Shown: positions 2-55,195 of the stretch, piece by piece
How positions within the stretch are numbered: position 1 is the stretch's first letter
How the letters are laid out: each line of letters opens with the position of its first letter
Assembly (NCBI GenBank): GCA_964487335.1
Contig: CAZAPT010000008.1
Span: 27,425-91,424, forward strand
DNA length: 64,000 bases
Source of the DNA: an uncultured Dehalococcoidia bacterium
Lineage (GTDB): Bacteria; Chloroflexota; Dehalococcoidia; DSTF01; JACRBR01
Direction: 5' to 3'
Position numbers and translations under genes: made by a program
Notes under the pieces: generated by a model
What the model was told of the DNA's origin: nothing
Database searches by the model: none
Seen by the model: only the letters and a program-made list of their open reading frames with translations

Positions 2-553
2 GGCGGCGATACGTCGATGGACTGCGCCCGCACCGCGATCCGCCTCGGCGGCCGCGAAGTCACCCTCGTCTACCGCCGCACCGAGAAGGAGATGGTCGGC
101 CGCGAAGAAGAGCGACAGCACGCCCGCGAGGAAGGCGTCCGCTTCGAGTTCCTCGCCGCTCCCGTCCGGTTCCTCGGTACGTCTGCAGGCCATGTCCGCG
201 CCGCCGAGCTCGAGCACATGGAGCTCGGCCCGCCCGACGAGAGCGGCCGCCGCCGCCCGCAAGCCGTCCCCGGCTCCGGCTTCACGCTCGAAGCCGACAC
301 CGTGGCCCTCGCCATCGGCTACAGCGCCGACGAGCGCGTCGCCGCATCCGCGGCGGGCGTGCTGATGGACAAGTGGGGCCTCGTCCTCGTGGATCGGGAG
401 TCCGGAGCGACGGACCGCCCCGGCGTCTACGCCGGCGGCGACGACATCAACGGCGCGGACCTCGTCGTCACTGCTCTGCGCGACGCGCGCATTGCCGCGA
501 ACGCGATGCACGAATACCTCTCCGCAAAGACGCCGGTCGCCGCCGCGTCCTGA
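2..553 (+). CDS. NAD(P)H-dependent glutamate synthase small-subunit/SudA/NfnB-like flavoprotein, C-terminal part (5' truncated by window edge)
   Basis: GGDTSMDCARTAIRLG, VTLVYRR, GVRFEFL, GVYAGGD motifs typical of GltD/SudA/PreT family. Confidence 0.85.
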   Translation, partial: GGDTSMDCARTAIRLGGREVTLVYRRTEKEMVGREEERQHAREEGVRFEFLAAPVRFLGTSAGHVRAAELEHMELGPPDESGRRRPQAVPGSGFTLEADTVALAIGYSADERVAASAAGVLMDKWGLVLVDRESGATDRPGVYAGGDDINGADLVVTALRDARIAANAMHEYLSAKTPVAAAS

Positions 554-634
554 TCCGGACCGGCTACTCATAACCCGCCCTCGTCGCTACCATCGATCGC
601 ACTCGTCCGCCTATCGACACAAGGAGCACCTGCG

Positions 635-1081
635 ATGGCATCCGTCAGCGTTGGTCAGGAAGCCCCTGACTTCACCCTGCGCAACGAGGACAACCAGCCC
701 GTGAAGCTGTCTGACCTGCGCGGCAAGCCCGTCGTCCTCGTCTTCTATCCGCTCGACTTCTCACCTGTCTGTACGAACGAGATGTGCGCGATCCGCGACG
801 ACTACTCGGCGTTCCAGGACAAGGGCGCGCAGGTGTTCGGCATCAGCCGCGACAGCACGTGGACGCACAAGGCCTTCAAGGAAAAGGAAGGCTTGACGCA
901 TACGCTGCTCGCTGACATGAACGGTGCGGTCGCTCAGCAGTACGGCGCCTGGAACGATGTCCTCGGCCTCGCAGAGCGCGTCACCGTCGTCATCGACGCT
1001 AGCGGCGTGGTGCAGCACGTTGAGCAGAGCGGTCTGGCCCAGGCCCGCGACCAGAAGCAAGCCATCGCCGCCATCAAGTAG
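635..1081 (+). CDS. Peroxiredoxin (AhpE/BCP-like)
   Basis: FYPLDFSPVCTNEMC peroxidatic PxxxT/SxxC motif; AGGAG RBS before ATG. Confidence 0.9.
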   Translation: MASVSVGQEAPDFTLRNEDNQPVKLSDLRGKPVVLVFYPLDFSPVCTNEMCAIRDDYSAFQDKGAQVFGISRDSTWTHKAFKEKEGLTHTLLADMNGAVAQQYGAWNDVLGLAERVTVVIDASGVVQHVEQSGLAQARDQKQAIAAIK

Positions 1082-2549: not shown

Positions 2550-3016
2550 GCGACGAGGGGCAGCGCCGAGGCCGCATGTGCTTCGCCTGCGGCGAGATGA
2601 ACGACCGCGGCTTGCAAATGCAGTTCCGTCGCGAGGGCGACCGCACGATCTGCGACTACACCCCCTGCGACTACCAGCAGGGATTCCCCGGCCGTATGCA
2701 TGGCGGCGTCGTCGCCACTCTGGTCGATGAAGCGATGGGCTGGGCCGTCTATCACGCGTCGGCATGGGCCGCGACCGCTCGCCTCAACGTCCGCTTCCGC
2801 GCCCCCATCCGCCTCGACCAGCCGCTCCGCATCGAAGCCTGGGTCACCCGCGACCGCGCGCGCCTCATAGAGCTCCGCGCCGAAGTCCGCGACACCCGCG
2901 GAGCCCTTCTCGCCGAGGGCGACGGTTCCTTCATGAAGCTCGACGAGCGCTTCGCCGGGGAGCTCAGCGATCTGGCGCGCGACGTCGGCCGTACCGATGC
3001 TCCCGCCGGAGGCTGA
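2546..3016 (+). CDS. PaaI-family thioesterase
   Basis: CFACG..N..GL, QGFPGRMHGGVVATLVDEAMG; GTG start overlapping upstream TGA. Confidence 0.85.
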   Translation: MSDEGQRRGRMCFACGEMNDRGLQMQFRREGDRTICDYTPCDYQQGFPGRMHGGVVATLVDEAMGWAVYHASAWAATARLNVRFRAPIRLDQPLRIEAWVTRDRARLIELRAEVRDTRGALLAEGDGSFMKLDERFAGELSDLARDVGRTDAPAGG

Positions 3017-3017
3017 T

Positions 3018-3830
3018 GTGTCCGCGTACGTTACCCCCGACTGGCTCGAAGAACACCTGCGCGATCCGAATGTCCGCATCCTCGAATCGAGCATCGCGAA
3101 GGACACCTACACCCGCGGCCACATCCTCGGCGCCGCGTGGGTCGAGCCGCACGCGGATCTCCTGCGCAACGGCGATGAGTCTTCCGGCTACATCCTCACG
3201 CCCGAGCAGTTCGCCGCTCTCATGAGCCGATGCGGCGTCACGCCCGAAACGACGATCGTCTGGTACGGCGACCGCCACAGTGTCTACGCCATCCGCGGAT
3301 TCTGGACCTGCGATTTCTACCGCCACCCGCGCGCCGTCGTCCTCGAAGGCGGCCGCGAGCGCTGGGAAGCCGAACACCGCCGGATGACGACCGACGCACC
3401 CAACATCGACCCCACGTCGTACCCCGTCCCGCGCGATGTAAACGACGCTAACCGCGCGACTTGGCAGCAGGTGCGCGATGCCGTGGCCTCACCCGCCGCG
3501 GCCGTCCTCGATGTCCGTACGATGCGCGAGTACACCGGCGAAGACGCCCGCGCCGCGCGCGGCGGCCATATTCCCGGCGCCGCGCGTGTCGAGTGGACCG
3601 ATGCCGCGGCTGGCGACAACGTCCTCGACTCGCCCGAAGAGCTCCGTCGCATGTACGAATCAGCCGGTATCACGCGCGACAAGGAAGTCATCGCCCACTG
3701 TCAGCTCGGCATCCGCGCGGCGCACACATGGTTCGTGCTGAAGCACGTCCTCGGCTACCCCAACGTCCGGAACTACGATGGCTCCTGGCAAGAGTGGGGC
3801 AACCGCGACGACCTGCCCGTCGAGCGCTAA
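3018..3830 (+). CDS. Tandem rhodanese sulfurtransferase (SseA/TST-like)
   Basis: GHILGA, GGHIPGA, active-site HCQLGIRA, YDGSWQEW; GTG start 3018. Confidence 0.9.
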   Translation: MSAYVTPDWLEEHLRDPNVRILESSIAKDTYTRGHILGAAWVEPHADLLRNGDESSGYILTPEQFAALMSRCGVTPETTIVWYGDRHSVYAIRGFWTCDFYRHPRAVVLEGGRERWEAEHRRMTTDAPNIDPTSYPVPRDVNDANRATWQQVRDAVASPAAAVLDVRTMREYTGEDARAARGGHIPGAARVEWTDAAAGDNVLDSPEELRRMYESAGITRDKEVIAHCQLGIRAAHTWFVLKHVLGYPNVRNYDGSWQEWGNRDDLPVER

Positions 3831-20853: not shown

Positions 20854-22041
20854 TCACCGATCCATCAGCGCCGACACCCCCGGCAACTCCCGCCCCTCTA
20901 GGAACTCCAGCGACGCCCCGCCGCCCGTCGATACGTGCGCGTACGCGGGCGCCAGCCCCACGTCCGTCACCAGCGATACCGTTTCGCCGCCGCCGATCAC
21001 GACCGTCGCGTCGAGCTTCGCCAGGAACTTCGCCAGCTCGATCGACCCCTGCGCGAACGCCTCCCACTCGGCCACGCCCAACGGGCCGTTCCAGACCACC
21101 GTCTTCACTCCCGCGAGCTTCGCTTCATAGTCGCTCACCGTTTTCGGCCCGACGTCCAGGATCATCCACCCCGAAGGCATGCCTGGCAGATCGACGATCT
21201 TCGACTGCGCGTCCGCCGCAAAATGATCCGCGACCACTGCATCCGCCGGCAGCCCGATCGTCACGTCGCGCGCCTCCGCCTTCTGCTCGATCTTCCGCGC
21301 CGTGTCGACCTGATCGTCCTCAACGACCGACGCGCCGACATCCACGCCCCGCGCCTTCAGGAACGTGCTCGCCATTCCGCCTCCGATCAGCAGCACATCG
21401 ACCTTGGACAGCAGATGCTGCAGCACGCCGATCTTCGAGCTGATCTTCGCCCCGCCGATGATCGCCGCGAGCGGCCGCTCCGGCTCCGATACCACCCGGC
21501 TCAGGTAATCGATCTCCTTCTCCATCAGGAAGCCCGCCACCGCCGGCAAATACTTCGCGACGCCCGCGGTCGACGCGTGTGTGCGATGCGCCGTCCCGAA
21601 CGCATCGTTCACGTACACGTCTGCGTACGACGCCAGCTTCTTCGCGAGATCCGGATCGTTCTTCTCCTCGCCCGGGTCGAAGCGCACGTTCTCCAGCATC
21701 GCGACGCCGCCCCGCTGCAGCGATGCCACCGTCTCGTCCGCCGAAGGCCCGACGACGTCCGTCGCGCATGCCACCGGGATACCGATGATCTCGCTCAGCC
21801 GCTTCCCTACCGGCGCCAGCCGCAGCTCGTCGGCGACCTTCCCATCCGGCCGACCGAGATGCGAGACCAGGATGATCCTCGCCTTGCGCTCCCGCAGGTA
21901 GTCGATCGTCGGCACCGCAGCCCGGATCCGCGTGTCGTCGACGATCTCGCGCGTCCTTTTGTCGATCGGCACGTTGAAGTCCACACCCACCAGCACGCGC
22001 TTCCCGTCGACGTCGATGTCGCGCACCGTCTTCTTGTTCAT
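20854..22041 (-). CDS. pgk: Phosphoglycerate kinase
   Basis: VDFNVP, SHLGRP, LENVRF, DAFGTAHR, STGGGASLEFLEG; start MNKKTV after GGAGG. Confidence 0.97.
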   Translation of the reverse strand: MNKKTVRDIDVDGKRVLVGVDFNVPIDKRTREIVDDTRIRAAVPTIDYLRERKARIILVSHLGRPDGKVADELRLAPVGKRLSEIIGIPVACATDVVGPSADETVASLQRGGVAMLENVRFDPGEEKNDPDLAKKLASYADVYVNDAFGTAHRTHASTAGVAKYLPAVAGFLMEKEIDYLSRVVSEPERPLAAIIGGAKISSKIGVLQHLLSKVDVLLIGGGMASTFLKARGVDVGASVVEDDQVDTARKIEQKAEARDVTIGLPADAVVADHFAADAQSKIVDLPGMPSGWMILDVGPKTVSDYEAKLAGVKTVVWNGPLGVAEWEAFAQGSIELAKFLAKLDATVVIGGGETVSLVTDVGLAPAYAHVSTGGGASLEFLEGRELPGVSALMDR

Positions 22042-22157
22042 CGCCTCCACGAAGGATCAGGCCCCGCCGTCCGTCCCATCACTCGATCGGCGCGTCCCCG
22101 CCACACGTCCGCTGCCGATGCTGTTACGATGATCATTGGAATCAAGGGAGAGCGCCA

Positions 22158-23999
22158 ATGGCGGGAACCGAAAACAACTTCCATTTCTCGCCGCGCCCCA
22201 ATCGCGCGAACGAGATCGCGTGGCGCGAGTGGTCGCCGGAAGCCTTCGAGGCGGCCCGGCACGATGATAAGCCGATCGTCCTCGACATCTCCGCCGTGTG
22301 GTGCCACTGGTGTCATGTCATGGACGAGACGTCGTACTCCGATCCGGACGTGATCTCGCTCATCAACGACCGCTTCGTCGCCCTGCGCGTGGACAACGAC
22401 CAGCGCCCTGACGTCAACGCCCGCTACAACATGGGCGGCTGGCCGACGACCGCCTTCCTCACCCCGGAAGGCGAAGTGTTGGCCGGCATGACCTACATCC
22501 CGCCGGAGCAGATGCGTGACGTCCTCCAGCAGGTCAGCAGCTATTACAAGGACAACAAGCAGGACATCCAGAAGAAGATTGCCGAGATCGCCGCGAACCG
22601 CGGTCGCGCGGACGGATCCACCGAGGGCACGGAGCTCTCCGACCAGGTCTTCCGCGACGTCATGCACTCCACCAGCGACGCCTACGACCCGGTCTACGGC
22701 GGCTTCGGCAACGAACCGAAGTTCCCCCACACCGACGCCATCGACCTGCTCCTGCATGCCTACCTGCGCGACGGCGATCGTGACGCCCTCCACATGGCGC
22801 GCAAGACGCTCGACTACATGTGCAAGGGCGGCACCTACGACCAGGAGTGGGGCGGCTTCTATCGATACTCCACCAAGCGCGACTGGAGCATCCCCCATTA
22901 CGAGAAGATGCTCGAGGACAACGCGCTCCTCCTGCGCAACCTGCTCAAGCTCTACCGCATCACCGACGACGATCAGCACCGCCAGTACATCGACTTCACC
23001 ATCGATTACCTGGACGCATGGCTCAGCGATCCGGTGACCGGGGCGTTCTACGGATCACAGGACGCGGACGAGGACTTCTACCCGCTTCCCGGAGAAGAGC
23101 GGAAGCGTCTCCCGGCGCCGTACGTGGACAAGACCGTCTACACCAGCTGGAACGCGATGGCGATCAGCGCCTACGTCGAAGCGTCGTGGACCCGCGGGAA
23201 GCCGCATCTCCTCGAGCGCGCGCTGAGGGCGCTCGACTTCCTCTTCGCCACGCTGCACACCGACGGCGATGGCATGTACCGCTACCTCGCACCCGAAGGC
23301 CGTCGCATCGCCGGTCTCCTCGGCGACCAGGCATGGACCGCCATGGCATGTCTCGATGCATACGAAGCCGCAGGGCGTCCGCAGGATCTTGATCGCGCGA
23401 AGGCGCTCGCGGGGTTCATGCGCGAGCATCTCTCCGACGAAACCGGCGGCTTCTTCGACACTCCTCGCGGTCACGATGCGCTCGGTCGCCTCTCGATGCG
23501 GCAGAAGCCGGTGAAAGAGAACGCAGTCGCCGCGCAGGTGTTCACGCGTCTCGCGCGCATCACGCACGATCCCGCATACGAAGACATCGCGCTACGCACG
23601 CTCCAGCAGTTCACGAACGTCGTCGAGTCGCAGGGATACTTCGCATCGGACTACGCAAAGGCCGTGGACGTCTTCCTCAACCCTGGCGCCGAAGTGAAGA
23701 TCGTCGCCCACGATGGCGCCGGCGTCGGTCCGCTCCGCGCCGCTGCGCTCTCGCTGCTGGTGCCGGATCGCGTCGTCCGCGCGATCGATGCCCGCGATCC
23801 GTCGGCACTCGACGCCGAGTCGCTTCCGGCCGATCCATCACCCGCCGCGTACGTCTGCTACGGCACCCTCTGCTCAGCGCCCGTCACGTCGCCCGGCGAC
23901 CTGATCGATGCCGTGAGCCGTACCCGGCAGGCCTACGAATCGACGCGCCACGCCGAGCCTCTTGCCGGCCCCAGGGGCGGCGGGATGGCTTCGGACTGA
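22158..23999 (+). CDS. YyaL/SSP411-like protein (DUF255 thioredoxin domain + glycoside-hydrolase-like helical barrel)
   Basis: WCHWCHVM, GGWPTT.FLTP, GGFG..PKFP, PHYEKMLEDNA, SQDAD, AYVC..C..P. Confidence 0.9.
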   Translation: MAGTENNFHFSPRPNRANEIAWREWSPEAFEAARHDDKPIVLDISAVWCHWCHVMDETSYSDPDVISLINDRFVALRVDNDQRPDVNARYNMGGWPTTAFLTPEGEVLAGMTYIPPEQMRDVLQQVSSYYKDNKQDIQKKIAEIAANRGRADGSTEGTELSDQVFRDVMHSTSDAYDPVYGGFGNEPKFPHTDAIDLLLHAYLRDGDRDALHMARKTLDYMCKGGTYDQEWGGFYRYSTKRDWSIPHYEKMLEDNALLLRNLLKLYRITDDDQHRQYIDFTIDYLDAWLSDPVTGAFYGSQDADEDFYPLPGEERKRLPAPYVDKTVYTSWNAMAISAYVEASWTRGKPHLLERALRALDFLFATLHTDGDGMYRYLAPEGRRIAGLLGDQAWTAMACLDAYEAAGRPQDLDRAKALAGFMREHLSDETGGFFDTPRGHDALGRLSMRQKPVKENAVAAQVFTRLARITHDPAYEDIALRTLQQFTNVVESQGYFASDYAKAVDVFLNPGAEVKIVAHDGAGVGPLRAAALSLLVPDRVVRAIDARDPSALDAESLPADPSPAAYVCYGTLCSAPVTSPGDLIDAVSRTRQAYESTRHAEPLAGPRGGGMASD

Positions 24000-47152: not shown

Positions 47153-47196
47153 TCAGCTACGGTCGCGCGCAACGCGGCTCGGCGTACATCGAAGGC

Positions 47197-47219
47197 AGGC
47201 GGAGGGCTCTACTCCGCCT
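47197..47219. terminator. Hairpin overlapping the stop of the extended FTR ORF
   Basis: AGGCGGAG-ggctcta-CTCCGCCT between convergent genes; no clear U tract. Confidence 0.45.
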
Positions 47220-47715
47220 CCCCCGGCGGCGTCCCTTCGTCATCCGGCGACTCATCGCCCGACGGCTTCGCCCGCTTGTGCAGCTCCGTGCCCCGCTGCT
47301 CCTCCAGCCGCCCCAGCGCCCGCCCCTTGTCCGGATGCTCGTCTTTCACGAGGCCGTAGATCTCGCGTCCTTCGTGCCCCTCTGGCAAGTGCTCGGTGAT
47401 CGGAAGACCTTCCGAATTACAGAAGAGTAGTCAATGGCAGTACTTGTACTTCTGCATCTCGTCGCACGCGCAGATCCACGTGCTACGCTTCGCCTCTTCC
47501 GCCTTGTCTTCGTAGAAGTTGCACGGGCACAGCGGCCGCCCCACCTCGTCGATGTGCTTCGCGAGCCCGATGACCAGGAACTCAGTGATCTCCCGCTGCG
47601 GGTGCAGGTTCGTCCCGCTCTTTTCAGCGAACTTCTCGACGAACTTCCACATCTTGTCGATGTTCTTCGGCGAAGCCTGCTGCCGGTCCTCATCGCTAGG
47701 CTTATCGATCGCCAT
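47209..47715 (-). CDS. Ferredoxin:thioredoxin reductase catalytic subunit, probable selenoprotein (168 aa; UGA at 47431-47433 read as Sec)
   Basis: PLCPCNFY..WICACDEM..YCH-UGA-LLF matches FTR CPC/CPC/CHC-x-LF; frame stays open 73 codons to TAG 47209-47211; SECIS-like hairpin follows UGA. Confidence 0.85.
47392..47424 (-). promoter_or_regulatory. Bacterial SECIS-like element
   Basis: UCGGAA-GGUC-UUCCGA upper stem (47400-47415), loop G-U at +23/+24 after UGA, possible bulged U and lower stem. Confidence 0.75.
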
Positions 47716-47838
47716 CCCAATCTCCGCGTGATCCCGCGTCCGATTGCCTCAGCCTACCCCATCCGGGACGTACCTCGGGGCCGGATCGACTGATGCGCAC
47801 CCACGAGCTGACCCACTGACAGACTGAAAGACTTCCCG

Positions 47839-52243: not shown

Positions 52244-52705
52244 ATGAGCGCGCTCTCGCTCCCCGACCCGCGCTACATCGCGATGCTCCTCGCAGTACCG
52301 CTCGCGCTACCGCTCGTCGCCTGCGGCGGCGGTGGCAACAGTGACGTATCGAAGTCCCCTCCCGCTCAGACCGCCGCCGCGCGCGTGACGCGCACCGCCG
52401 TGGCCCAGGCGACCGCCACCGCCGTCGCCGCAATCCCGACGGAGTTCACCTCCGTCCCGCCGACCGTCACGCGTGGTCAGAACGCGCAGATCAGCGTCCA
52501 TACCAAGCCCCGGGCGCGCTGCGATGTGGCCATAAGCTACCGGAACAATCCCTCGCACCCGGACCAGCCGGGCCCGCAGCGCGCCGACAACGATGGCAAC
52601 GTCAGTTGGTCCTGGACTGTAAATCCCGATGCTGAGCCCGGTCCCGCCGCGGCCATCGTGAGCTGCGATTACGACGTCCTCCAGACCAGCTTCACCGTCA
52701 CCTGA
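52244..52705 (+). CDS. Hypothetical lipoprotein with small Ig-like domain
   Basis: LVACGGG lipobox; ADNDGNVSWSWTV and a Cys pair. Confidence 0.7.
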   Translation: MSALSLPDPRYIAMLLAVPLALPLVACGGGGNSDVSKSPPAQTAAARVTRTAVAQATATAVAAIPTEFTSVPPTVTRGQNAQISVHTKPRARCDVAISYRNNPSHPDQPGPQRADNDGNVSWSWTVNPDAEPGPAAAIVSCDYDVLQTSFTVT

Positions 52706-52833
52706 ACTATGCCCGAGCCAAACGCGTTTCCCGGCGTCGCACCAAGAAAAGCGGGCCTCGCGCAACGAGGCTGCACGCGGGACCTGCCCGACTGACCGAC
52801 TCACCGGCTAGGACACCGACTATACTCGCCCTC

Positions 52834-53367
52834 GTGCCCCTGTATCACTTCAGCGAAGAGCCCGACATCCGCGTCTTCGAGCCGCGCCCTCCGCTCGCTC
52901 GGCCCGATGTCGAGCCGCTCGTGTGGGCGATCGACGACCGGCACCAGCCGATGTACTTCTTCCCGCGCGACTGCCCGCGCGCTTGCTTCTGGCCGGGCCC
53001 GCAGACCTCCGACGATGACCGCGACCGGTGGCTCACCGCCGCCGACGTGCGCATGGCCATCGCCGTCGAGTCCCGATGGCTCGACTCCATCCGCCAAACC
53101 GTCCTCTACCGCTACACCATGCCGGACGAAGGCTTCGCGCCGCTCGATGACATCGCCGGACACTGGGTGAACCGTTCCGCCGTGACGCCGCTGTCCGTCG
53201 ACCCGGTCGGCGATCTGCTGCGCGCGCTGCTCGACGCGAACGTCGAACTCCGCGTGATGCCATCACTCATCGAGCTCTGGCGCCGCGTCATCCAATCGAC
53301 GCTTTGCTTCTCCGGCACCCGCCTCCGCAACGCCAAAGGTTGGGATCAACTCGCCGCCGAACTCTAA
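52834..53367 (+). CDS. Conserved hypothetical protein (DUF6886-like)
   Basis: LYHFSEEPDIRVFEPR, VWAID..YFFPRDCPR; TATACT 7 nt before GTG. Confidence 0.7.
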   Translation: MPLYHFSEEPDIRVFEPRPPLARPDVEPLVWAIDDRHQPMYFFPRDCPRACFWPGPQTSDDDRDRWLTAADVRMAIAVESRWLDSIRQTVLYRYTMPDEGFAPLDDIAGHWVNRSAVTPLSVDPVGDLLRALLDANVELRVMPSLIELWRRVIQSTLCFSGTRLRNAKGWDQLAAEL

Positions 53368-54317
53368 TCGCTACCGGGGCCTTCCCCGATCCGCGTCCCC
53401 GGCTCAACCCTCGCCCCTGCGGCCCACGGCCACGACTCGCGCGTCGCCGCGAAGTCCCCGTGATGTCCCCGCACAATCGCATCCGCGATCCGCGCCGCCT
53501 CCACGTTCGCCCGCACGTCGTGCACCCGGACGATGTCCGCCCCGCCGGCGATCGCCAGCGCCGTCACCGCCACCGTCGCCGCGTCCCGATCGCGCGGCGT
53601 GGCGCCGGTCACGCTCCCGATGAAGTGCTTCCGTGACGCCGCGACCAGGATCGGCAGCCCGAACGCTCCGAACTCTGAGAGCCGCCGCAGCACTTCGAGG
53701 TCCTCGTCGTGCGACTTCCCGAACGCGATCCCTGGATCGATGATCAGCGACTCCTCCGCGACGCCCGCGGCGCGCGCCATCTCGATCCGCTCCCGAAAGA
53801 ACCGCATGTGCGCCTCCATCACGTCGTCGTACAGCGGCGGGGCTAAAGGCCTCACCTTCGGCCGCTCGAGCGTGTAGTTGATCACCAGTGCTGCACGGTG
53901 CTTCTCCGCGGCTTCGGCGGTCGACGCGCCCACCATGAACCCGCCGATGTCGTTGATCATGTGCGCCCCGGCCGAGATCCCCGCCTGCGCGACAGCGCCC
54001 TTGTACGTATCGATGGAGATGACGGCATCGACTTCCTTCGATACCGCGCGCACGACACGGCCGATGAGCTCCGCCTCCCCCGCCGACTCCCTCGGAGGCA
54101 CATCCGCGCGCGCCGACTCCGCACCGATATCGACGATATCCGCTCCGTCCGCCTGCGCCGCAACCGCTCGTCGCACCGCCGCATCGAGGTCGTCGCCGAG
54201 GCCGTCACCTGAGAACGAATCGTCCGTCAGGTTCACGATCGCCATCACGTACGTCCGCTCGCCGAGCGGCAGCGCGCGATCGCGCGCGCGAAGCGTTCTG
54301 CGTGCGCTGTCAGTCAT
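53364..54317 (-). CDS. folP: Dihydropteroate synthase
   Basis: VNLTDDSFSGDG, DIGAES, SIDTYK, IDPGIAFGK, SRK, VRVHDV. Confidence 0.95.
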   Translation of the reverse strand: MTDSARRTLRARDRALPLGERTYVMAIVNLTDDSFSGDGLGDDLDAAVRRAVAAQADGADIVDIGAESARADVPPRESAGEAELIGRVVRAVSKEVDAVISIDTYKGAVAQAGISAGAHMINDIGGFMVGASTAEAAEKHRAALVINYTLERPKVRPLAPPLYDDVMEAHMRFFRERIEMARAAGVAEESLIIDPGIAFGKSHDEDLEVLRRLSEFGAFGLPILVAASRKHFIGSVTGATPRDRDAATVAVTALAIAGGADIVRVHDVRANVEAARIADAIVRGHHGDFAATRESWPWAAGARVEPGTRIGEGPGSD

Positions 54318-54352
54318 GGTTTGAAGCGTGGGCCGCCGCAGCCCCTGTAGGA

Positions 54353-55195
54353 CTAATCCCAGAAGTCGAGCGTTGTGCGCATCGCCTTCTCGAAGTCCTC
54401 GTCCGATTGCTGCTTGTGCAGTTGCCCGATCAGCTCAGCGTCCTGACCGACGAGGTACCGCCGCTTCGGCTCCGCCGCCTTGGCGGCATCCACGATCACG
54501 TTCGCGACGATCTGCGCGTCCGCTCCACCGCCTGTGCCCGGCAAGCGCGATGACGCTTCGGCGAACCGTCGCTCGAGCTGGACGTATGCCGAGCCCTCGG
54601 TGAAACGCTTCGCGGGATGGGAGTTGTTGCCGATCTCCGTCTCGAACCCGCCCGGCTCGACGATCGAGACTTGGATCCCGAACGGGTGTAGCTCGTAGTA
54701 CAGTGCGTCGCTGATCGCTTCGAGCGCGTGCTTGCTCGCCGAGTAGATCCCGCCGAACGGCGCCGTCACCTTACCCGCGAGCGAACTCACGTTGATGATG
54801 CGACCGCTGCCCTGCTCCCGCATCGTCGGTAGCGCCGCCCGCGTGGTGCGGATCACGCCCATCAGGTTCGTGTCGAAGATCGCCTGCACCTCGTCGTCGT
54901 CGAAGTCCTCGATCGGCCCGTGCGAGCCGATGCCCGCGTTGTTCACCAGCACGTCGAGACGCCCGGCCTTCGCCGCCACGTCCTTCACCGCCCGGTCCGC
55001 GGACGCCTTCTTCGTCACGTCCAGCTCGACGACGCTCACTTCCAGCTTCTCCGCCTTCGCCGCATCCTGGAGCGCCCCCGCTTTCGACGTGTTCCGCATC
55101 GATGCGTACACCGTGTCTCCCCGCCGCGCGAACTCCAGCGCCGCGAGCTTCCCGAACCCTGAGCTGCACCCTGTGATCAGTACGACTGCCATCAT
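54353..55195 (-). CDS. Short-chain dehydrogenase/reductase (17beta-HSD-like)
   Basis: ITGCSSGFG, VNNAG, YSASK, EPG. Confidence 0.95.
   Translation of the reverse strand: MMAVVLITGCSSGFGKLAALEFARRGDTVYASMRNTSKAGALQDAAKAEKLEVSVVELDVTKKASADRAVKDVAAKAGRLDVLVNNAGIGSHGPIEDFDDDEVQAIFDTNLMGVIRTTRAALPTMREQGSGRIINVSSLAGKVTAPFGGIYSASKHALEAISDALYYELHPFGIQVSIVEPGGFETEIGNNSHPAKRFTEGSAYVQLERRFAEASSRLPGTGGGADAQIVANVIVDAAKAAEPKRRYLVGQDAELIGQLHKQQSDEDFEKAMRTTLDFWD

Follow-up and report, generated by a model that had tools for sequence, protein, structure and literature searches.

Ferredoxin:thioredoxin reductase (FTR) is the standard example of disulfide cleavage by a [4Fe-4S] cluster to which one of the two sulfurs becomes bound. 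In this report, we examine a gene of the FTR catalytic-subunit family in which an in-frame UGA stands at the position of a redox-active cysteine, and which is very probably translated with selenocysteine (Sec) at that codon. The gene lies on the minus strand of a 64-kb stretch (64,000 nucleotides, hereafter the window) of contig CAZAPT010000008.1, from an uncultured Dehalococcoidia bacterium; all coordinates given below are positions in this window.

One known relative is the classical FTR catalytic subunit of cyanobacteria and chloroplasts, FtrC or FTRB (PDB 1dj7, 2pu9, 2puk, 7bzk and 7c3f), with which the predicted product shares the Pfam domain, the fold (template modelling (TM) score 0.70) and the spacing of six Cys residues. 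As the residue at the UGA is the equivalent of Cys87, the same mechanism, relying on a [4Fe-4S] cluster and an adjacent dichalcogenide, is to be expected. Compared to the classical subunit, the window protein would have Sec in place of the cluster-proximal Cys, has CAC in place of the second CPC motif, and carries a conserved C-terminal extension of about 45 residues followed by a disordered tail. Its host is of the non-photosynthetic Chloroflexota type, and no gene for the variable subunit was found in the window.

Sec-containing homologues of the catalytic subunit were reported in 2008 for the Global Ocean Sampling (GOS) metagenome (Zhang & Gladyshev, PMC2398784), and reviews of 2022 and 2026 list a selenoprotein family named 'Ferredoxin-thioredoxin reductase, CxU'. 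The GOS reads JCVI_READ_1093012271142 and JCVI_READ_841845 encode proteins of about 104 amino acids with two Sec residues, in the arrangement CPU...CPC...CIU (PMC2398784, Dataset S2). They belong to the family modelled as 'FtrB family double-selenoprotein' (NCBIfam NF041072), a catalytic-subunit homologue with, as here, an in-frame UGA at CxU and a predicted Sec insertion sequence (SECIS). The window protein differs from it in keeping the CPC motif (TGC codons), in having a single Sec and in its length of 168 residues, and it scores 37.2 bits with the NF041072 equivalog hidden Markov model, against a cut-off of 160 bits. Membership of NF041072 was therefore rejected on both score and motif (single UGA, CPC), and the same two features indicate a different subfamily. 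The initial annotation of the window had suspected that Sec-type FTRs might already appear in metagenomic surveys; they do, since 2008, but as members of this short, double-Sec subfamily and not of the one considered here.

Stand-alone proteins resembling the catalytic subunit and operating without a variable subunit are also known from non-photosynthetic anaerobes, namely the ferredoxin:disulfide reductase (FDR) of Methanosarcina acetivorans (4tpu) and a glutaredoxin (Grx)-FDR fusion of Desulfotalea psychrophila (7pwe). An FDR-type sequence matches the window protein at 8e-9 over residues 15-134, while 4tpu and 7pwe are distant or weak structural matches; the domain fused in each of them (rubredoxin and glutaredoxin, respectively) is absent from the window protein, and both are Cys enzymes. 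Long Cys-type proteins of Dehalococcoidia and other Chloroflexota ('ferredoxin-thioredoxin reductase catalytic domain-containing protein') have the same extension and organismal range and are direct Cys orthologues or paralogues. These differ in having TGY for TGA, Val four residues downstream of this position (+4), no conserved hairpin, and synonymous sites that vary freely. In the literature searched, a scope that left BSepDB outside, no paper was found on the long single-Sec form of Chloroflexota. FTR homologues with Sec at the redox position CxU are already known; this subfamily may be undescribed, as may its SECIS, which resembles the fdhF element of E. coli, and its linkage to selC.

Results

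A reading frame of 168 codons across the UGA

Our main finding is that the gene very probably encodes a 168-residue selenoprotein of the FTR catalytic-subunit (FtrB/FeThRed_B) family, with Sec at the UGA at 47433-47431. Translation starts at ATG 47715-47713 and proceeds through MAIDK...CDEMQKYKYCH to this TGA, past which the same frame stays open for 73 codons (LLFCNSEGLPITEHLPEGHEGREIYGLVKDEHPDKGRAL..., LLFCNSEGLPITEHLPEGHEGREIYGLVKDEHPDKGRALGRLEE...) up to TAG 47211-47209; both the open reading frame (ORF) ending in ...KYKYCH and its continuation had been described in the initial annotation, and our translation agrees with it. The features of the locus are as follows.

47209 to 47715, minus strand: complete gene of the predicted selenoprotein, FTR catalytic-subunit-like (FtrB family), 168 codons (167 amino acids plus Sec95) and TAG
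47431 to 47715, minus strand: 94-codon ORF of standard gene callers (MAIDK...KYKYCH and TGA), from the ORF call
47521 to 47529, minus strand: CPC motif (C63-P-C65), aligned to C55-P-C57 of the Synechocystis and plant catalytic subunits; column invariant in a 20-sequence alignment
47464 to 47472, minus strand: CAC motif (C82-A-C84), by alignment the counterpart of the second CPC of the classical subunit; CPC or CAC in relatives
47431 to 47439, minus strand: C93-H-U95 motif, whose putative Sec codon TGA (47433-47431) is placed by HMMER opposite the second Cys of CHC, Cys87 of the Synechocystis subunit
47398 to 47418, minus strand: predicted SECIS element, nt 16-36 counted from the U of UGA, from folds and comparative data
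47419 to 47421, minus strand: TGT codon of Cys99, position +4 from Sec
47293 to 47430, minus strand: conserved post-Sec segment, residues 96-141 (LLFC-NSEGLPITEHLPEGHEGREIYGLVKDEHPDKGRALGRLEE), comprising the end of the catalytic-subunit domain and a family-specific extension, from the alignment
47212 to 47292, minus strand: variable low-complexity tail, acidic and Pro-rich, residues 142-168, not alignable among homologues
47722 to 47725, minus strand: Shine-Dalgarno-like GGAG, 6 nt 5' of the ATG, read from the sequence
47190 to 47225, minus strand: GC-rich hairpin across the TAG stop, -27 kcal/mol over 56 nt

Profile and structure searches were run with the read-through product, Cys being put in place of the UGA. 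Pfam PF02943 (FeThRed_B, FTR catalytic beta chain; COG4802 FtrB) matched residues 19-102, that is, across the UGA, at 85.1 bits (cut-off 22 bits), and the crystallised catalytic chains of plants and Synechocystis in the PDB matched at 1e-19 to 1e-21 (best 1.7e-21). The six-Cys signature CPC-x16-C[PA]C-x8-CHC is present as CPC-x16-CAC-x8-CH[U], with the UGA standing at its last Cys. The alignments thus place the residue where the initial annotation had put it, at the last Cys of CHC (Cys87 equivalent) in a CPC/CAC/CHU protein.

A homologue search, which the initial annotation had proposed, returned 2339 matches. The best 120 of these are proteins of about 150 amino acids from Dehalococcoidia and other Chloroflexota, with 60-78% identity over 88% of the read-through product; all have C at the Sec position, except one full-length entry with W, which is a TGA translated as Trp. 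In a 20-sequence alignment, the UGA column is Cys in every other row and is followed by 23 invariant columns, including L97, F98, G103, P105, T107, L110, P111, H114, E115, G116, R117, Y120, G121, D125, P128, G131, R132 and A133. Because the Cys homologues share these conserved columns and the downstream segment to which they belong (LPITE..HEGR.IYG..DP.PDKGRALGRLEE), the frame certainly continues past the UGA.

Other features of the frame point in the same direction. The 73 codons after the TGA are as conserved as those preceding it; blastn conservation against related loci extends over 47290-47715 without interruption at the TGA, the closest loci being 87% identical over the gene while not sharing its flanking synteny. 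Base composition is typical of coding DNA on both sides (G+C at third codon positions 0.92 upstream versus 0.80 downstream of the TGA, at second positions 0.37 versus 0.40), and homologues begin with M-x-[LI]-D-[QK]-P, in agreement with the chosen start. A search of the window for further in-frame TGA junctions of coding-like character recovered this gene alone.

Predicted fold and C-terminal extension

An AlphaFold2 model of the protein has a mean predicted local distance difference test (pLDDT) score of 72.7, with 80-85 at residues 101-130, less than 50 at residues 147-168, and 53-67 in the loop that would bind the cluster, a drop to be expected when the cofactor is left out of the model. 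Foldseek retrieved the catalytic subunits 7c3f, 7bzk and 2pu9 at probability 1.0 and TM 0.67-0.70 (target-normalised); sequence identity to the classical structures is 34-38%.

The protein has no additional Pfam domain. Its C-terminal 76 residues gave no sequence match in the PDB and the extension has no Pfam match of its own, so that its identification with a known domain was rejected; C99 is its only Cys. The extension, about 45 residues long (about 100-141), is a family trait common to Sec and Cys forms, and the protein ends in some 25 variable residues that are probably disordered. Where the initial annotation had seen an extra C-terminal domain, there is thus a conserved extension of about 45 residues, but it is not specific to Sec forms, has no recognisable independent fold, and passes into a variable tail.

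At position +4 after the Sec/Cys site, Cys is found in 110 of 120 Sec forms (U-L-L-F-C) and Val in 97 of 102 Cys forms. This Cys could be functional, for example as a resolving or protecting thiol. It could equally reflect the history of the clade: a revertant to Cys (locus L123, see below) retains it, and independent Sec origins carry Val.

Recurrence of the TGA and evolution of the Sec forms

To place the TGA in a wider context, we scanned the GTDB species-representative genomes with the back-translated context E-M-Q-x-x-K-Y-C-H-TGA-x-L-F. TGA occurs at this codon in at least 120 loci, closed chromosomes included; among the matches listed, nearly all belong to metagenome-assembled genomes (MAGs) of Dehalococcoidia or other Chloroflexota, and two to Entotheonellaceae. 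An unbiased scan of metagenome contigs, in which TGH was allowed at the codon, yielded 120 loci with TGC in 80, TGT in 25 and TGA in 15. Overall, no fewer than 135 independent loci have the TGA, and a sequencing error or a private pseudogene is thereby excluded. Wherever the fetched sequence was readable, the frame downstream of the TGA was intact, with the sole exception of locus L061 (DAOUHS010000061.1). There the frame breaks after ...LPEGHE and continues as EGRRELCAPQ..., which suggests a frameshift resulting from an assembly error or a decaying copy.

The history of the codon was examined by Fitch parsimony on a neighbour-joining tree of 227 sequences. Cys is reconstructed at the root, with four changes needed. 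The tree contains one large Sec clade, and the window gene falls within a Sec-only subclade of 15 members; on a small scale, Sec arose independently in L022/L111/L148 and in L003, and at least one reversion occurred (L123). A trait that is being maintained should give such a pattern, with one large Sec clade beside two or more small origins that are independent of it. The Sec forms L022 and L111 (MAGs of Candidatus Entotheonellaceae), L148 and also L003 group with Cys forms, at about 7% distance to L167 and L181. In the Entotheonellaceae-type forms the UGA is followed by another hairpin, GUAAACC-CGGA-GGUUUAC, which is consistent with, and suggests, an independent conversion from Cys to Sec and a separately evolved SECIS.

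A hairpin selected in TGA-bearing genes only

The mRNA after the UGA reads CUACUCUUCUGUAAU-UCGGAA-GGUC-UUCCGA-UC. A perfect 6-bp stem, already noted in the initial annotation, joins UCGGAA (47415-47410) to UUCCGA (47405-47400) around a GGUC tetraloop (47409-47406). The hairpin begins 15 nt 3' of the UGA and its loop starts 21 nt after the UGA (nt 25 from the U); the spacing window of bSECISearch is 16-37 nt. A hallmark of bacterial SECIS elements is a G in the loop (PMC13582414), and the GGUC loop has G at positions 1 and 2. The general layout is an outer stem, a 1-nt 5' bulge or mismatch, a GGAA/UUCC core stem and the GGUC tetraloop; in the window variant (UCG...CCG), the stem can also be read as 6 continuous base pairs.

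The element closely resembles the SECIS of E. coli fdhF, the sequence of which we verified in 5413 E. coli genomes and then folded; the AGGUCU apical sequence that the initial annotation ascribed to it is correct. In both, a GGUC tetraloop closes a 4-bp stem with a single 5' bulged nucleotide and an outer stem, within coding sequence and immediately after the UGA. They differ in that the loop starts at nt 25 here and at nt 22 in fdhF, one codon further from the UGA, and in the core stem, GGAA/UUCC here versus UGCA/UGCA. Compared to fdhF, the window variant forms either the continuous 6 bp or, in the fdhF-like register, a bulged C.

The significance of the hairpin derives from comparative data rather than from single-sequence folding. 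Its 12-mer core GGAAGGUCUUCC, at nt 21-32, is found in 129 of 135 Sec forms and in none of 104 Cys forms. Among the latter, the 22 that encode the same E-G-L-P residues do so with at least 12 codon combinations, never with GAA-GGU-CUU. Over nt 16-36, the mean entropy at third codon positions is 0.51 bit in Sec forms versus 1.47 bit in Cys forms, whereas over nt 37-66 the two are alike (1.17 and 1.24, respectively).

Pairing was tested on 96 distinct Sec sequences for the structure 16-19/33-36, bulge 20, 21-24/29-32 and loop 25-28. RNAalifold on 66 nt gave no useful consensus, owing to the two registers of the outer stem, and this fixed structure of 8 pairs was used instead with direct column statistics. 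It is paired in 91.9% of cells, against 84.5% in column shuffles and 22-63% in slid-register controls, and double-sided changes, observed in 61 cells, were equalled by none of 500 shuffles. Pair 19-33 is GC in 49 sequences, UG in 33 and CG in 10, and pair 18-34 is UA in 79 and CG in 6. Where nt 19-20 read GA, the downstream Pro is encoded by CCC in 43 of 43 Sec forms versus 12 of 65 Cys forms (p = 2e-19). The search for a SECIS suggested by the initial annotation thus ended in a GGUC-loop hairpin, 21 nt after the UGA, that is under nucleotide-level selection in TGA-bearing genes only.

Association with tRNA-Sec in related loci

ARAGORN detected 33 tRNAs in 240 fetched loci, 20 of which are tRNA-Sec, all confirmed by Rfam RF01852 (62-74 bits, for a gathering score of 47 bits). 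A tRNA-Sec lies within 4 kb in 20 of 135 other Sec-form loci, versus none of 105 Cys-form loci (p = 6e-6). In 15 of the 20, it is divergent from the FTR-like gene and about 80-125 nt from its start. It adjoins the gene at L005, L010, L012, L062, L076, L079, L081, L089, L095, L103, L109, L110, L114 and L174, and is located 0.8-3.7 kb away at L011, L033, L070, L082, L132 and L156. In selenoprotein content, MAGs of Dehalococcoidia rank with the richest bacteria, having 46-49 such genes (PMC13326102). Taken together, the tRNA-Sec linkage in relatives and the literature make Sec decoding in this clade well supported.

At L011, a gene for a thioredoxin-reductase-like flavoprotein (2858-3808, plus strand of that locus; Pyr_redox_2, 155 bits, 316 amino acids) stands between the FTR-like gene and the tRNA-Sec, divergent from the former and upstream of selC; a comparable spacing, of about 2 kb, exists at L033 and L156.

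Truncated entries in public databases

Standard annotation was predicted to yield a truncated 94-residue protein, and the public protein collection indeed contains exactly this product (P0168), surrounded by clusters of 56-187 entries shortened in the same way, to 93-95 amino acids. Such products form seven clusters at 90% identity, with 1-187 members each and 632 in total (around P0121-P0211); public databases thus systematically cut members of the clade short, at about 94 residues. The clusters are named 'ferredoxin-thioredoxin reductase catalytic chain' or '...domain-containing protein'. Some NCBI records, such as MCY4618455.1 and MDE2896544.1, bear the name 'ferredoxin--nitrite reductase', which looks like a misannotation.

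Genomic neighbourhood

Upstream of the gene and on the same strand are genes for a GNAT acetyltransferase, a metallophosphoesterase and a MATE transporter; on the other side are alpha/beta-hydrolase-like, glyoxalase-family and DinB-family genes. As stated in the initial annotation, there is no variable-subunit gene nearby: PF02941 (FeThRed_A) has no match among the 45 window ORFs scanned against Pfam, and neither a thioredoxin nor a ferredoxin gene was found near the FTR-like gene. We also clustered the ORFs lying within about 5.5 kb of the codon in 241 loci. Synteny was detected at the clade level only, in about 30 loci (ABC transporter, methyltransferase, SDR, CsoR-like and AhpD-like genes), and the idea of a conserved operon partner was therefore rejected; the gene looks monocistronic.

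The initial annotation had also seen a hairpin at the TAG, and it does exist, spanning the stop (47225-47190). Its z-score of -1.4 is unexceptional for DNA of 66.5% G+C, no U-run follows it, and a terminator search called none on the minus strand; it may be a transcript-end structure, though not a canonical intrinsic terminator.

Other thiol or redox genes of the window have no link to the FTR-like gene: a large DUF255/thioredoxin-domain protein (Thioredox_DsbH, 133 bits) with an extra six-hairpin glycosidase-like region is encoded at 21978-23996 (plus strand), and a rhodanese at 2937-3827. At the edge of the window, the 3' end of a pyridine-nucleotide-disulfide oxidoreductase (thioredoxin-reductase-like) gene (2-550, plus strand) is followed, after a single TGA at 551-553 and in the same frame, by an AhpC/TSA peroxiredoxin gene (554-1078, plus strand; 148 bits). 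The roughly 30 codons between this TGA and the peroxiredoxin domain are not coding-like, and the TGA is probably the ordinary stop in a pair of adjacent redox genes rather than the mark of a second selenoprotein. A member of the unknown-function family DUF6886 (215 bits) is encoded at 52636-53364 (plus strand), beside a pterin-binding (dihydropteroate synthase-like) gene at 53367-54434 on the opposite strand.

Discussion

Proposed decoding and mechanism

Most likely, the UGA at 47433-47431 would be decoded as Sec by Sec-tRNA(Sec) and SelB, the latter being recruited by the downstream hairpin. By analogy with the structurally characterised FTR, C63, C82, C84 and C93 would be the [4Fe-4S] ligands, and C65, the surface redox Cys, would form with U95 a redox-active selenenylsulfide beside the cluster, replacing the disulfide. 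A first electron from a ferredoxin-type donor would cleave this bond, after which the selenium of U95 would attach to the unique cluster iron, giving an Fe-Se intermediate, while C65 would attack a disulfide in the thioredoxin-like substrate; on arrival of a second electron, the mixed disulfide would be resolved and the product released. The protein probably works without the variable subunit of the plant and cyanobacterial enzymes.

Alternative explanations

One objection is that the TGA arose as an error in sequencing or assembly, or through a mutation (TGC or TGT to TGA) that has recently inactivated the gene, in which case an ordinary Cys-type gene would be misread or a pseudogene. Cys is after all the majority state, in 105 of the 120 unbiased metagenome loci and in all listed full-length database homologues. 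However, the same TGA recurs in at least 135 independent assemblies, closed chromosomes among them, with a frame that is intact where readable save for L061; moreover, the window gene sits inside a Sec-only subclade and carries the Sec-specific GGAAGGUCUUCC hairpin, found in no Cys form, so that we regard this explanation as vanishingly unlikely. It is also extremely improbable that the UGA is a genuine stop, with a truncated 94-residue protein being made and the downstream segment left untranslated or translated on its own. Gene callers do report such a protein, hundreds of database entries of 93-95 amino acids exist, and a TTG-initiated ORF of 59 amino acids does lie downstream (47388..47209). 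Yet the 94-residue product would be deprived of the catalytic residue and of the end of the Pfam domain, which the profile matches up to residue 102; the conserved frame passes over the UGA without a break, there is no conserved internal start, and the selection on synonymous sites that forms a SECIS-type hairpin would be left unexplained. Even so, some termination should accompany Sec insertion at the UGA, as it does on other mRNAs for bacterial selenoproteins.

Could the UGA be recoded to another amino acid, either Cys through a tRNA-Sec-like tRNA(Cys) using the SelB/SECIS route, or Trp or Gly under a variant genetic code? Metagenomes have reportedly yielded tRNA-Sec-like tRNAs whose identity is unusual, one database entry has W at the codon, and the delivered amino acid is not distinguishable by sequence analysis. 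Against this, TGA ends ordinary genes elsewhere in the window, for example at 551-553, which argues against codes 4 and 25; the tRNAs beside related loci score well above the gathering threshold of the Rfam tRNA-Sec model (62-74 versus 47 bits), the site is that of a redox-active Cys, a classic context for Sec, and Dehalococcoidia are documented as heavy Sec users (PMC13326102). We therefore consider recoding to an amino acid other than Sec to be very unlikely.

Several observations do weigh against Sec insertion at this codon and the mechanism proposed above. Pfam scans of the 45 window ORFs found no selA, selB or selD, and neither a tRNA (ARAGORN) nor any Rfam match, hence no selC, was found within the 64 kb, so that Sec decoding in this genome has to be argued from its relatives. 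The fold of the hairpin as a single sequence is modest (-6.6 kcal/mol over 24 nt, z -2.1, 8 of 200 shuffles), the minimum free energy of the 71 nt after the UGA is not better than that of shuffles (z -0.56), and no Rfam family matched the hairpin in a search of the window. A lower stem had been thought possible in the initial annotation, but a scan of all stacked column pairs returned the apical helix and alternative pairings of invariant bases, with no covariation for such a stem. Across the 241 loci there is no family-wide conserved neighbour, thioredoxin or ferredoxin genes included, and cluster binding, electron donor and substrate are proposed by homology with the classical enzyme.

Significance

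A Sec-type FTR homologue is no new principle, such proteins having been on record since 2008. It is conceivable, and we advance it tentatively, that the long single-Sec FTR-like proteins of Chloroflexota (at least 135 loci and more than 600 shortened entries in this sampling) constitute a large undescribed selenoprotein subfamily, distinct from the double-Sec FtrB. Its marks would be a SECIS of its own, with the fdhF-like GGUC loop, and a Cys at +4 that goes with Sec (U-x3-C), to which one subclade adds selC as a divergent neighbour. Were this the case, nature would offer, in abundance, an enzyme whose selenium becomes a passing ligand of a [4Fe-4S] cluster in the catalytic cycle. A selenium variant at the cluster-binding position would offer a spectroscopic handle (77Se, Se K-edge) on the intermediate, and could show what Sec buys the enzyme, for example a lower potential, a faster turnover or tolerance to oxidation; given how closely the SECIS resembles the fdhF element, heterologous expression in E. 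coli may succeed with no redesign of the gene. For annotation, a full redox enzyme is recovered once the UGA is read as Sec, and uncultured Dehalococcoidia and other Chloroflexota gain a further marker of the Sec trait.

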